Sequence record: PP886230
DNA from: Escherichia phage vB_EcoM_E9.1
Strand: one strand, 5' to 3'
DNA: 64,000 nt
In this document: positions 26,266 through 30,697 of the stretch, in pieces
How the letters are laid out: each line of letters begins with the position of its first letter
Numbering within the stretch: position 1 is the stretch's first letter
Program-made: the position numbers and the translations under genes
Notes under the pieces: model-generated
Told to the model about the DNA's origin: nothing
Databases searched by the model: none
Seen by the model: only the letters and a program-made list of their open reading frames with translations

Positions 26266-27543
26266 ATGAAATCTATGGAGAGAAATCAAATGCCAAGTAA
26301 TTTTACTGATAAAAATGGTGGTAACATGGCTGGTCACTCTGATAAATGGAGTGAACGCAACCGCCGTCCAAATAGTTATCAAGCAGGTCAAGGTTCACGT
26401 GGATCACGTAACCAAGGAACTGGTCTAGCTGGTAAAGCAAACGCAGAAGCAGGTGAAGTTAAGAGTACTGAGAACATGACTGAGCTAGAAAAGCTACGTT
26501 ATGTTAATTCATTGGGACTTCTTAATGCTACACAAAAACAACGCCTAGCTGATATGGAACGTGAAGAAAAAGAAAAATCTGCTCCTGCTAAAGAAGAACC
26601 AAAACAAGAAGCACCAAAGGCGGTTAACCCTGTCAAAGAACTGTCGGATAAGTTAGGTAAGATTTTTGCTAATAAACCACAACTTATCCAAGGTATTGTG
26701 AAAGAATTGCAATCTGTACCTAAAGAAGAATTAAAAGTCAAAGCACAAGCTGTGCTTGATGCAATGAGTGGAAATACCAGTACTGAACCAACTGAAGTAT
26801 TCAGTACTATAATGCGTGCACTTGAAGGTACGCAACAAGGTGATGTGCCTGCACAAGAGGAAGTAAGTCTTGAAAGCGTACTTAAAACATTTGATAGTAT
26901 TGGTAAAGAAGACCGTGCTAATGCTCAACAAGTTAAGAATGTACTAGCTAAGTTAGAAAACCGTCTGGAAGGTAAAGACGATAAGATTAAATTAGTATCT
27001 GATGCAGTTAACGATGCACTTAAATCTTATGTACAAGGTGAAAAGAGTCGTTTTGTAACTGCAATGGATGCTGCATTCAATACTATGAAAAAGTATGAAG
27101 CTGATCATGGTGAGAAGGTTACACGAGATGGTTATCTGATGCGTGATGATGAAGAAGGTGCAGTAGAACAGAACGATGTTCATTCAGACGAAGAAATTGA
27201 TGACATGGAAGCTGAACTGTCACAAGACCGCCAAATGACTGAAAAATCCCATAACGAACTACAGAAATTAATGCAATGGGTTGCAGATGTTGGTGAAAAA
27301 GCTGGTGCTGATAAGAAGAGTATAAACCGAAATCTTAGTTGGATTAAAGATAAAGTTGGTAACAACGCTCGTAAACTACAAAAAGCGTGGACTGATGTAG
27401 TGAATGGTGCTGTTGACATTGATGTTGAATCCGGTGAGGCATATGATTATGCATTGACTACACTTGATGACTCTTTCCGTGATTACGAAAATGGAAATGT
27501 AACTCCTTGGGAAAAGGACATCATGAGCAAATACGGTAAATGA
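26266..27543 (+). CDS. large acidic charged protein
   Basis: ORF 425 aa; E/K/D-rich; internal segment paralogous to ORF 25637. Confidence 0.65.
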   Translation: MKSMERNQMPSNFTDKNGGNMAGHSDKWSERNRRPNSYQAGQGSRGSRNQGTGLAGKANAEAGEVKSTENMTELEKLRYVNSLGLLNATQKQRLADMEREEKEKSAPAKEEPKQEAPKAVNPVKELSDKLGKIFANKPQLIQGIVKELQSVPKEELKVKAQAVLDAMSGNTSTEPTEVFSTIMRALEGTQQGDVPAQEEVSLESVLKTFDSIGKEDRANAQQVKNVLAKLENRLEGKDDKIKLVSDAVNDALKSYVQGEKSRFVTAMDAAFNTMKKYEADHGEKVTRDGYLMRDDEEGAVEQNDVHSDEEIDDMEAELSQDRQMTEKSHNELQKLMQWVADVGEKAGADKKSINRNLSWIKDKVGNNARKLQKAWTDVVNGAVDIDVESGEAYDYALTTLDDSFRDYENGNVTPWEKDIMSKYGK

Positions 27544-27552
27544 TAAAACAAA

Positions 27553-27577
27553 AGGTTGACTTCGGTCAGCCTTTTTT
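27553..27577 (+). terminator. intrinsic terminator (GGTTGAC-TTCG-GTCAGCC family)
   Basis: Perfect 7-bp stem, TTCG loop, T7 run; downstream -10 is weak. Confidence 0.7.
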
Positions 27578-27614
27578 TGTAAATACAAAAGAGGAATTAA
27601 GAAGAGGGATTACA

Positions 27615-27866
27615 ATGAAAAAATATATTATATTTGGAATTGTATTATTTTCCAGTACTGCTTATGGTGCAGATTATCATTGCTCCGTAGCAAGGCAGGA
27701 TTTCAGAAATGGGGAGTTCTATACTACCTCATACACAAAAGGAATAATACACGACACCGACAGAACTATTGGATTTAATGCGTTTGACAACAAAGATTCA
27801 TATACTTCAGGTATACTATCTGAGCGTAAGACTGATGTAATGGGAATAGAAAAAGAGTTCCGGTGA
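27615..27866 (+). CDS. secreted small protein (signal peptide)
   Basis: ORF ~83 aa from ATG 27615 (MKKYIIFGIVLFSSTAYG-AD); track start 27540 would read through the terminator hairpin. Confidence 0.6.
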   Translation: MKKYIIFGIVLFSSTAYGADYHCSVARQDFRNGEFYTTSYTKGIIHDTDRTIGFNAFDNKDSYTSGILSERKTDVMGIEKEFR

Positions 27867-28185: not shown

Positions 28186-28605
28186 ATGAAAAAGATTTTT
28201 TTAAGTATTATTTTAGTACTTTTTAGTTTTAATGTATATGCAGCAGATGCTAAACAGGTTGCAAATACAGTAAAAGATGTTATAGTAGATAATGCTCCTA
28301 CATTAGAGGAAATTGGGGTAAAAACTTGTGATATAGTAATATATAATTTAGTTAATGATGAACGAGTTATGTTGAATACGTATGAACAAGTAGTCCCATT
28401 GGTTGAATCTGGTGATGCTTTTAGCTTTACATATAAAGTTAAATTAACAGGAGGGGTTGAAGTTAATCTTGACATTGATACCGCTTCAGTACTAAAAGAT
28501 AAACTAGGATATGTGTTCAATCGTATTCGTGAAGAAGGTCATCTTAAGTATGTTTATGAAAGTAAAATACTAAAACGTGCAATAGTTATAGAAAACTGTA
28601 AATGA
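28186..28605 (+). CDS. secreted protein (signal peptide)
   Basis: ORF 139 aa; N-terminus MKKIFLSIILVLFSFNVYA-AD. Confidence 0.6.
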   Translation: MKKIFLSIILVLFSFNVYAADAKQVANTVKDVIVDNAPTLEEIGVKTCDIVIYNLVNDERVMLNTYEQVVPLVESGDAFSFTYKVKLTGGVEVNLDIDTASVLKDKLGYVFNRIREEGHLKYVYESKILKRAIVIENCK

Positions 28606-28614
28606 TAATAAAAG

Positions 28615-28646
28615 GGTTGACTTCGGTCAGCCTTTTTTGTTATGAT
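28615..28646 (+). promoter_or_regulatory. fused terminator-promoter module
   Basis: Hairpin GGTTGAC-TTCG-GTCAGCC plus T6, TTGACT -35, 18-nt spacer, TATGAT. Confidence 0.65.
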
Positions 28647-28674
28647 GTTGGTATTAACTACAGAGGATAAAGTA

Positions 28675-29316
28675 ATGACTAAGCAAGACATATTCAAAAC
28701 TTTAATTGACATTTTGCGTCCATCAAAAACTCGTTGTGCGATGGAGTTTGATATTCCTTATGCTGAACGCGTAATCTTTCCACAAGTTAAAGCTGCTGGA
28801 CTTACTTTGCTTGGAATGGGGATGTACTCTGTAGTAGTTGAACATAAAAACTATCCTGGGCGTGCATTTAAAGTAACCACTTCACGCTGGGATGGTTTTC
28901 GTGCTTATGCAAAGTACTGCATTGAAAACGCAGGAACCAAGTTTCTTCCAGTGATCTACAGTGCAAACGAACAAGGAAACTTTGGATGGTATGAGATGGA
29001 CAAGTACTATCCTATAATTAAACAAAAAAATAATTATGATGACTTTGTTAGTACTAAAATTGGAGATTTATATTCTTATGCACATGCTGGTCAGTACGCT
29101 ACTTCAGTGAATGATATGCGTGGAAATTCTGAAGAGATTGCTATTGCGACGGTCGCTGCTAACATCATGAAAGAGTTTCACGGGCGTTTTGTACCAGACA
29201 TTCATTCCAGTAATGTCATGATGGATAAAGATGGCAATGTATTCATTACTGATCCTCTTTCGTGTGATGTACGTAGAGAAATACCAGTTACTGAAGAAGA
29301 TCCAGTTTTTTATTGA
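28675..29316 (+). CDS. kinase-like protein (weak motif)
   Basis: ORF ~213 aa from ATG 28675 after AGAGGA; DIHSSNVMMDKDGNVFITDPLS resembles the catalytic-loop and metal-binding-loop pattern of APH/choline-kinase-like kinases (HGDLHxxN ... IDFE). Confidence 0.45.
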   Translation: MTKQDIFKTLIDILRPSKTRCAMEFDIPYAERVIFPQVKAAGLTLLGMGMYSVVVEHKNYPGRAFKVTTSRWDGFRAYAKYCIENAGTKFLPVIYSANEQGNFGWYEMDKYYPIIKQKNNYDDFVSTKIGDLYSYAHAGQYATSVNDMRGNSEEIAIATVAANIMKEFHGRFVPDIHSSNVMMDKDGNVFITDPLSCDVRREIPVTEEDPVFY

Positions 29317-29661: not shown

Positions 29662-30000
29662 ATGGAACAATATTTTGAATTAATAAACAAAGTATCATTT
29701 TATGTAGTATCTTTGGTTTGGGTGTATTATATGTTTTGCTACATTATTGCATTCTTCCGATACACTACTTTATATGAACGTATCTATTATGATGCCCCAA
29801 TTTCATTCTTGATGTTTTGTGCATGTACGTGGGGAATATTAGAAGTACTGATATGTGGGTATAGTACTGATGAATTAAATCTGGTATCGGTCTTGACTGG
29901 GTTTTCATTTGTTGTTATGATAGCTGCCGTTCCAGTATGGTTGTTCTTTGGACTAGTTCATCGCATTGATATATGGCGTTCTAATATCCCTGAAAAGTAA
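29662..30000 (+). CDS. family-B small multi-pass membrane protein
   Basis: ORF 112 aa; 3-4 hydrophobic helices; basic motif FFRYTTLYERIYYD after helix 1; tail RSNIPEK. Confidence 0.65.
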   Translation: MEQYFELINKVSFYVVSLVWVYYMFCYIIAFFRYTTLYERIYYDAPISFLMFCACTWGILEVLICGYSTDELNLVSVLTGFSFVVMIAAVPVWLFFGLVHRIDIWRSNIPEK

Positions 30001-30009
30001 GGATTGGTA

Positions 30010-30351
30010 ATGATTTATTACACTAACATGTTTGCCTATGCTGTTGCTTGCATTTACATTGTGTACTTCTTATTCGGTGGAGTACTGTGCTTCTTTAAGT
30101 ACAAAACGTTGTTCAACCGAATGTACCCAAATCATCCAATTGTGGTTGTACTTTTGATTCTTTCAGTTTCTCAAATAATAGTTGAAACTACAATGGGTAT
30201 CAGTAGTGTACATTATAGTTTTGGTACTATAGTAATTATTACTATGCTTATTGCATACATTTTAGTACTTGGATATGGTATCTTTGGTAATATTGGTATG
30301 AAAATGTATCATCGAATTAAAACATTACGTGATAATCTACCGGAGCGTTGA
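30010..30351 (+). CDS. family-B small multi-pass membrane protein
   Basis: ORF ~113 aa (ATG 30010; track used TTG 30004); FFKYKTLFNRMYPN; tail RDNLPER. Confidence 0.65.
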   Translation: MIYYTNMFAYAVACIYIVYFLFGGVLCFFKYKTLFNRMYPNHPIVVVLLILSVSQIIVETTMGISSVHYSFGTIVIITMLIAYILVLGYGIFGNIGMKMYHRIKTLRDNLPER

Positions 30352-30352
30352 T

Positions 30353-30697
30353 ATGTATAATTTGAACCTAATCTCATATATTATAACAACACTGTTTACA
30401 TTCTATGCCTTTGTTGGTATAATCCTACTGTACTTTAAATTTTATAAAGTGTTTAACCGTTTCTATCCTTCAATGGAGAATGAGTTTTTCTTTGTGTTGT
30501 ACGTAGGTTACACATTAATGGCTACATGTTTCACTGTAGCCGATGGTGTCATCGGCATTAAAACTGATTCCCCAAATGGTAGTACGCTGGTTGCATTTAT
30601 TCTTACTGGATTCCTTGCAACTTATATTGCCTTCATTACAACATGGTCAGTGGTTGAATTTCTCTTGCGACTACGAAAGAATATGCCGAATCGATAG
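30353..30697 (+). CDS. family-B small multi-pass membrane protein
   Basis: ORF ~114 aa from ATG 30353 (TGATATG junction); YFKFYKVFNRFYPS; tail RKNMPNR. Confidence 0.65.
   Translation: MYNLNLISYIITTLFTFYAFVGIILLYFKFYKVFNRFYPSMENEFFFVLYVGYTLMATCFTVADGVIGIKTDSPNGSTLVAFILTGFLATYIAFITTWSVVEFLLRLRKNMPNR

Follow-up and report, generated by a model that had tools for sequence, protein, structure and literature searches.

A predicted T7-type protein kinase lacking the shut-off domain, and its putative terminator/promoter cassette, in an Asteriusvirus jumbo coliphage

The DNA analysed here, referred to as the window, is a 64-kb stretch (64,000 nucleotides) of Escherichia phage vB_EcoM_E9.1 (PP886230) that carries on its plus strand, at 28675-29316, a single open reading frame (ORF) of 213 codons, uninterrupted on translation and closed by a TGA stop codon at 29314-29316. 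An earlier note, made from the sequence alone, had tentatively proposed that this ORF encodes a phage protein kinase akin to T7 gp0.7, and both the reading frame and the comparison are upheld, the latter by BLASTP, hhalign, reciprocal PHROG matches, a structural model and the conserved residues. A 2-kb query around the ORF finds matches in 42 phage records, in which the ORF is conserved; in 20 of the 42 the match covers 80% of the query or more, with 98-99% DNA identity. Every named record among them comes from an Asteriusvirus jumbo phage that infects E. coli or Salmonella and has a genome of 310-373 kb; they include 121Q, PBECO4, phAPEC6, G17, Sharanji and SP27, and these matches place the window in an Asteriusvirus jumbo coliphage of the 121Q/PBECO4/G17 group. 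The window kinase is identical in 210 of 213 residues (99%) to G17_00108, the 'putative protein kinase' of phage vB_EcoM_G17, with the three substitutions D5E, R63S and V205I; the two are the same gene in sister isolates. Further orthologues are 121Q gp205, phAPEC6 gp031c and Sharanji gp144 (WNN14432.1, checked as the orthologue at the same position), and the gene order is common to 121Q, G17, Sharanji and phAPEC6. A tblastn search of the kinase against the whole window finds no paralogue; the weak minus-strand matches that it gives between 7.1 and 7.5 kb (E 0.37-5.4) fall in an unrelated 384-residue ORF and a spurious antisense ORF and are rejected as chance.

Sequence comparisons assign the protein to the family of the T7 kinase, gp0.7 (T7K; UniProt P00513). 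With the gp0.7 sequence taken from NC_001604, BLASTP aligns the window kinase to gp0.7 residues 68-230 at 26% identity (E 5e-9), and hhalign, using a profile of 22 close homologues from the jumbophage clade (alignment A1), gives a probability of 98.5% (E 2.9e-15). The window kinase matches PHROG 15752 over its full length (E 2.5e-97) and also PHROG 2828, the 'serine-threonine kinase' family that holds T7 gp0.7 (E 8.8e-17). Reciprocally, T7 gp0.7 matches PHROG 15752 through its residues 6-222 (E 1.7e-46), so that the whole 213-residue protein, including its N-terminal helices, corresponds to the gp0.7 kinase domain. The label PF27024 (Phage_T7_kinase) is precomputed on a database protein, P0001, that is 100% identical to the window kinase. 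When 1.84 billion cluster representatives were searched exhaustively with HMMER, 242 relatives emerged at E up to 1e-3, and by this count the T7K-type family is modest in size and phage-type. Kinase-only architectures are common in it: 99 of the 173 family proteins retrieved in the metagenomic search have at most 260 residues and 53 have more than 320, and the 27 close homologues of the window kinase among the 173 are all kinase-only. The window protein is thus almost certainly a kinase-domain protein of the T7K family, belonging to PHROG 15752 (sister to PHROG 2828) and to PF27024. Of the kinase classes that had been suggested for it, membership of the phage T7-kinase family stands, and assignment to the APH/choline kinases or the canonical eukaryotic-like kinases does not, neither PF01636 nor PF00069 being matched in the local copy of Pfam-A.

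The residues required to bind ATP and transfer phosphate are in place. The motif DIHSSNVMMDKDGNVFITD, from which the kinase call had been made, lies at residues 175-193 (nt 29197-29253) and is not a chance occurrence, as the ORF is conserved in the 42 phage records and matches PHROG 15752, and D175, H177, N180 and D193 are invariant. In an alignment of 76 sequences, made up of diverse family representatives and T7 gp0.7, the residues G49, K66, P92, D175, H177, N180 and D193 are invariant, and conservation is 90% or higher at G47, H57, D73, F168, M182, T192 and P194; D175, H177, N180, D193 and K66 are also invariant in the 22 close homologues of alignment A1. The ATP-binding element that the earlier note had left to be sought is present in both of its parts, a glycine-rich loop (G47/G49) and a lysine (K66), each conserved. 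The metal-binding aspartate is followed by proline, and D-P-x variants are distributed in the family as DPV (105), DPL (30) and DPI (12). In T7K, DPV replaces the DFG motif, and its valine is reported to vary more among the jumbophage homologues (Bartolec et al., Nature 2026, PMC13645617).

The AlphaFold2 model built on alignment A1 (mean predicted local distance difference test score 93.2, predicted template modelling score 0.88) has three N-terminal helices followed by a five-stranded, beta-rich N-lobe with elements E44-48, E52-56, E63-68, helix 75-84, E94-100 and E103-109, the glycine-rich loop sitting on the E44-48/E52-56 hairpin. The C-lobe is short and helical, contains the catalytic strands 172-198 and ends just past the metal-binding loop. 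Foldseek finds 213 matches in the PDB at E up to 1e-3, and the top 50, all of them protein kinases or APH enzymes, have probabilities of 0.97 or more, with 48 of the 50 at 1.00; the best is APH(3')-IIIa (2BKK), with E 1.8e-5, a template modelling (TM) score of 0.39 and 14% identity. In the viral structure library BFVD, the best match is a 213-residue orthologue (62% identical, TM 0.91), and ranks 2-9 are Autographiviridae 'protein kinase' models with TM 0.64-0.74 and E of about 1e-12 to 1e-15. Structure prediction, proposed earlier as a check on the kinase call, thus returns a protein-kinase-like fold for the window protein and no non-kinase fold.

The protein ends at residue 213, 20 residues past D193-P-L, and homology to gp0.7 by BLASTP and hhalign stops near gp0.7 residue 230 of 359. 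A tblastn search of the 64-kb window with gp0.7 residues 231-359 gives nothing (best E 0.71), and the T7K N-terminus likewise has no tblastn match in it. The C-terminal shut-off (SO)/DNA-binding domain of T7K, of roughly 130 residues, is absent from the window kinase, and the jumbophage G17 and Munch homologues have been noted to be without it (PMC13645617). Bartolec et al. (PMC13645617) show that T7K binds DNA through the SO domain, which shifts its choice of substrates in favour of nucleic-acid-binding proteins. Where T7K runs on into this domain, the window protein closes with the acidic REIPVTEEDP tail, in which I203, P204 and E207 reach 90% conservation or more across the 22 homologues. 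Records name the orthologous gene 'protein kinase' or 'putative protein kinase', some only 'hypothetical protein' (Sharanji and several Salmonella-phage records), and in RefSeq the product name of 121Q gp205 and of its PBECO4 counterpart reads 'protein kinase; inhibitor of host transcription; positively regulates RNaseIII; negatively on RNaseE'. The words 'inhibitor of host transcription' are unsupported because the SO domain is absent, and the RefSeq description of effects on host transcription, RNase III and RNase E is an over-reaching transfer from T7 gp0.7.

Table 1. Features of the kinase gene and its surroundings (window coordinates).
Feature	Position	Strand	Basis or remark
Hairpin cassette copies, 18 nt each	22786, 26029, 26212, 27554, 28615, 32902, 34184, 36442	+	Intergenic repeat
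Stem-loop GGTTGAC-TTCG-GTCAGCC	28615-28632	+	Followed by T-run 28633-28638; putative intrinsic terminator of upstream gene
Candidate -35 box TTGACT	28617-28622	+	Within 5' arm of stem-loop
Candidate extended -10 box TG-T-TATGAT	28638-28646	+	Promoter scan, 10/12 matches plus TG
Shine-Dalgarno sequence GAGGA	28663-28667	+	7 nt before ATG 28675
T7K-type protein kinase coding sequence, kinase domain only, 213 aa	28675-29316	+	Homology and model; stop codon included
Glycine-rich ATP-binding loop L46-G-M-G-M-Y-S-V-V-V55	28810-28839	+	Conservation, 76 members
K66, beta3 ATP-anchoring lysine (A-F-K-V)	28870-28872	+	Invariant; aligns with T7K K93 (R-V-I-K-V)
Catalytic loop D175-I-H-S-S-N180	29197-29214	+	Aligns with T7K D195-M-H-S-G-N200
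Metal-binding D193-P194-L195, then S196	29251-29262	+	The family's DPV variant of DFG
Acidic C-terminal tail R-E-I-P-V-T-E-E-D-P, jumbophage-clade-specific	29272-29304	+	Conservation, 22 homologues
Weak terminator-like hairpin directly past kinase stop codon	29317-29332	+	Consensus scan only

The kinase gene is preceded by a compact cassette in which a putative terminator and a candidate promoter are fused (Table 1). The orthologous hairpin in G17 is annotated as a terminator (-13.5 kcal/mol), and the window holds eight copies of the hairpin, all on the plus strand and six of them exact, with none expected by chance. The consensus of the eight aligned cassettes is GGGTTGACTTCGGTCAGCCTTTTTTGnTATAAT, followed about 25 nt on by GAGGA and then ATG; their -10 consensus is TGnTATAAT, 17-18 nt past TTGACT (18 nt between the -35 and -10 boxes upstream of the kinase), and the geometry from Shine-Dalgarno sequence to ATG is shared. 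Composite terminator/early-promoter elements, termed PeSLs, have been described in T4-like phages and proposed to mediate gene shuffling (PMC4122927, PMC2839356), and the cassette looks like such an element, here in an Asteriusvirus. By its sequence, the kinase gene probably has its own promoter for host sigma-70 RNA polymerase and is expressed early.

The cassette also bears on the start codon. The mechanical ORF list includes a second, upstream ATG at 28642 that would give a protein of 224 residues, and the records are divided, with the start at 28675 (213 residues) in G17 and phAPEC6 and at 28642 in 121Q, PBECO4 and Sharanji. The ATG at 28642 sits within the -10 hexamer (28641-28646) and has no Shine-Dalgarno sequence; as it would thus lie upstream of any transcript start, ATG 28675 is preferred. 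The start chosen in the earlier note is therefore better supported than the longer GenBank/RefSeq one, and the 121Q, PBECO4 and Sharanji records probably begin the gene 11 codons too far upstream.

Just downstream of the kinase lie three tandem paralogous plus-strand ORFs of 112-122 residues (29662-30000, 30004-30351 and 30329-30697), in which inspection by eye reveals hydrophobic membrane-like segments, a shared core resembling F-[RK]-Y-x-T-L-[YF]-x-R-x-Y-P and similar C-terminal ends (W-R-S-N-I-P-E-K, L-R-D-N-L-P-E-R and L-R-K-N-M-P-N-R); they look like a locally duplicated membrane-protein family. Directly upstream, the plus-strand ORFs 27540-27866 and 28186-28605 have signal-peptide-like N-termini, MKKYIIFGIVLFSSTAYG (counted from an internal Met) and MKKIFLSIILVLFSFNVYA, respectively, and their products could be early proteins that are secreted or reach the periplasm. 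The true start of ORF 27540-27866 is probably the internal MKKY, as the annotated start overlaps a hairpin cassette. Further upstream, the plus-strand ORF 26266-27543 encodes an acidic, Lys/Glu-rich protein of 425 residues whose orthologues are phAPEC6 gp035c ('chromosome segregation protein', in virions) and 121Q gp201 ('virion structural protein'). The ORF spans 1278 nt here (stop included), and the annotated coding sequences have 1488 nt (121Q), 1254 nt (phAPEC6) and 1545 nt (Sharanji), differences that suggest indels in a low-complexity region.

Two observations concern kinases elsewhere. Asteriusvirus genomes encode a second protein termed a protein kinase in the Sharanji paper, the 194-residue WNN14351.1 (Sharanji OR545507.1 20026-20610, minus strand), whose expected place is beyond the window, some 46 kb away. 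It belongs to PHROG 4301 (unknown function) and was rejected as a T7K family member, its hhalign probability of 1.9% not being significant. The viral fold search lists a 194-residue protein of phage RaK2 in 50th place (E 9.7e-5). Distant homologues of the window kinase (45-56% identical) on three metagenome contigs have surroundings like those in the window, long series of small ORFs (about 50-250 residues) that all point one way and have almost no Pfam matches, one neighbour carrying PF26820 (Phage_T4_Y00F). Kinase-only proteins thus seem to accompany hyperplastic early-gene regions in large phages.

The data suggest the following course of events. Host sigma-70 RNA polymerase would transcribe the gene soon after infection from the promoter fused to the upstream terminator hairpin. 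The product is predicted to fold as a compact protein-kinase-like domain, with N-terminal helices, an N-lobe bearing G-x-G and K66, and a short C-lobe. By homology, Mg-ATP would be held by K66, N180 and D193, with D175 as the catalytic base, and phosphate would be passed to Ser/Thr, and possibly Tyr, residues of host and phage proteins. As the enzyme has DPL without the DFG phenylalanine and no long activation loop, it is probably constitutively active. Without the SO domain, neither a shut-off of host transcription of the type caused by the gp0.7 C-terminus nor a T7K-like bias towards nucleic-acid-bound substrates would be expected. The least certain step is the role, most likely early host takeover and/or the weakening of defence systems by phosphorylation. 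T7K and four Autographiviridae homologues (Bas64, Bas65, Bas66 and Bas68) are hyperpromiscuous Ser/Thr/Tyr kinases by phosphoproteomics, and T7K weakens Retron-Eco9 and other DNA-associated defences (PMC13645617). By analogy, the window protein is likely an active protein kinase that acts on host proteins early in infection; an anti-defence role is put forward only tentatively, with the balance of probability somewhat against it. The idea in the earlier note of a kinase that reprogrammes host machinery would likewise carry over to the jumbophage enzyme by analogy.

The kinase is probably not delivered with the phage particle. Its phAPEC6 orthologue, gp031c, is not among 62 virion proteins identified by mass spectrometry; gp035c and gp037c, encoded four and six positions upstream, are in phAPEC6 virions. 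Packaging of the kinase in the virion was rejected on this ground, and its absence from virions indicates that it is made after infection and not injected.

A number of observations weigh against a straightforward transfer of T7K activity to the window protein. The assays behind the activity of the family were made with T7K and Autographiviridae homologues, so activity in the jumbophage clade is argued by relationship, and early expression is argued from the consensus match of the promoter. Scanning the local copy of Pfam-A returns no family even at E up to 10, as PF27024 is newer than that copy, and an NCBIfam scan gives only a noise match to SurA (E 0.039). Neither the single protein nor the profile finds anything significant by sequence in the PDB, where the best kinases reach E 0.29-1.8 near the catalytic loop, and no solved structure of a close relative is detectable there by sequence. 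As the top PDB match of the model is APH(3')-IIIa, the predicted fold alone does not tell protein kinases from small-molecule kinases. Depletion of Ser, Thr and Tyr has been reported for early proteins of T7-like phages (PMC13645617), and in a crude compositional check, made on mechanically chosen ORFs of an AT-rich genome with no matched control, it is not evident in the window proteins: these residues make up 20.5% over 118 non-overlapping window ORFs and 17.5% over those of the 22-40 kb block, and the window kinase has 17.4% versus 9.5% for T7K. This is weak evidence that the jumbo-phage enzyme may be less indiscriminate or less active than T7K. Regulation may also differ. It has been proposed that DPV without the DFG phenylalanine locks T7K in an active state and that autophosphorylation at S216/S218 switches it off, S216 being the inhibitory site and described as conserved in all variants (PMC13645617). 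The window kinase has the equivalent serine, S196 (nt 29260-29262), but in contrast to that description the S216-type serine is mostly lost in the jumbophage clade, the column holding Ala or Gly in 20 of the 22 members of A1. The S216-type off-switch is thus not a feature of the clade, and by this alignment the regulation of the clade may differ from that of T7K.

The same observations feed into the alternative readings. Together, the loss of the S216-type serine in most members and the lack of Ser/Thr/Tyr depletion nearby hint at a different activity regime in the clade, and one could regard the kinase-only jumbophage proteins of 213-237 residues, which have a conserved acidic tail of their own, as a functionally distinct branch of the T7K family, acting either as free-diffusing hyperpromiscuous enzymes that disarm defences not associated with DNA or as specific regulators; we consider this a minority possibility. 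Given about the same, rather low, weight is an active kinase with narrow, clade-specific targets, for which the N-terminal helices or the REIPVTEEDP tail would be a docking or regulatory element. Such specificity would fit the absence of the DNA-binding domain that concentrates T7K on preferred substrates, the conservation of the acidic tail in the jumbophage clade only and the undepleted Ser/Thr/Tyr content of the neighbouring proteins and of the kinase itself, and P1 Doc demonstrates that phage kinases can be specific. However, the DPx motif, the proposed basis of constitutive high activity, is kept, all T7K homologues assayed so far are hyperpromiscuous (PMC13645617), and the compositional comparison is crude.

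The remaining explanations are far less probable. A small-molecule kinase of the APH, choline-kinase or Kdo-kinase type, acting on an antibiotic, sugar or lipid, is highly improbable, even though APH(3')-IIIa heads the PDB matches, because the sequence homology is instead to T7K, a proven protein kinase (PMC13645617), PF01636 is unmatched, and the T7-like kinases at ranks 2-9 of the viral library lie much closer in TM score than the value of about 0.4 for APH. Even less credence is due to the reading implied by the RefSeq product name, a gp0.7-like protein with a second function in the shut-off of host transcription. Nothing beyond the transferred annotation and the description line of PHROG 15752 speaks for it, and the protein stops short of the roughly 130-residue domain concerned, the loss of which in jumbophage homologues was recorded independently (PMC13645617); the RNase III and RNase E effects were observed for particular substrates in T7 and are not transferable at 26% identity. 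The least probable reading is that of a catalytically dead pseudokinase or scaffold, given that the residues for ATP binding and phosphotransfer are all invariant over 76 divergent sequences and that T7K, with the same truncated architecture, is highly active. An active T7K-type protein kinase is the preferred reading of the gene.

As a gene, this kinase is already known and represents no new kind of system. GenBank records since 121Q (KM507819) name it protein kinase, the G17 protein is listed as a jumbophage T7K homologue (PMC13645617), the Sharanji genome paper recognises WNN14432.1 as homologous to the T7 kinase and raises a role against host defences as possible (PMC11895373), and a Pfam family covers it. 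The present analysis adds the corrected start codon, the terminator/promoter cassette context, the over-reach of the RefSeq name, the non-conservation of the S216-type serine and the lack of Ser/Thr/Tyr depletion. For annotation, the name copied from gp0.7 claims more than the sequence allows one to infer, and the start in several records probably lies too far upstream. T7-type kinases were recently shown to be hyperpromiscuous, with targets across almost the entire host proteome, and to disable several anti-phage defence systems (PMC13645617). The jumbo-phage homologues are natural 'kinase-only' versions and would bear on the part played by the SO domain in the substrate bias and anti-defence reach of T7K, as well as on whether giant phages use the same trick as T7.

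Among known systems, the eukaryotic-like kinases (PF00069; for example M. tuberculosis PknB, 1MRU) differ from the window kinase in the absence from the latter of a local Pfam-A profile match, of HRD, of Lys at +2, of DFG and APE and of a long activation loop. The alphaF-alphaI region of the C-lobe is also missing, the protein ending about 20 residues past the metal-binding Asp. APH(3')-IIIa (2BKK) and the window kinase are both protein-kinase-like enzymes, the resemblance being at fold level only (TM 0.39), and the substrate-binding helical subdomain of APH(3')-IIIa is absent from the window kinase. The closest parallel is T7K, with which the window kinase shares G-x-G, the beta3 Lys (in A-F-K-V in the window kinase and V-I-K-V in T7K), D-x-H-x-x-N and I-T-D-P-[VL]-S, as well as the same compact predicted fold; both occur in E. 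coli phages, and the window gene is probably early. The two differ in size (213 versus 359 residues), in the metal-binding motif and C-terminus (DPL and an acidic REIPVTEEDP tail in the window kinase, DPV and an SO domain in T7K), and in the phages that carry them, a myovirus-type jumbo phage of roughly 350 kb versus a 40-kb podovirus.

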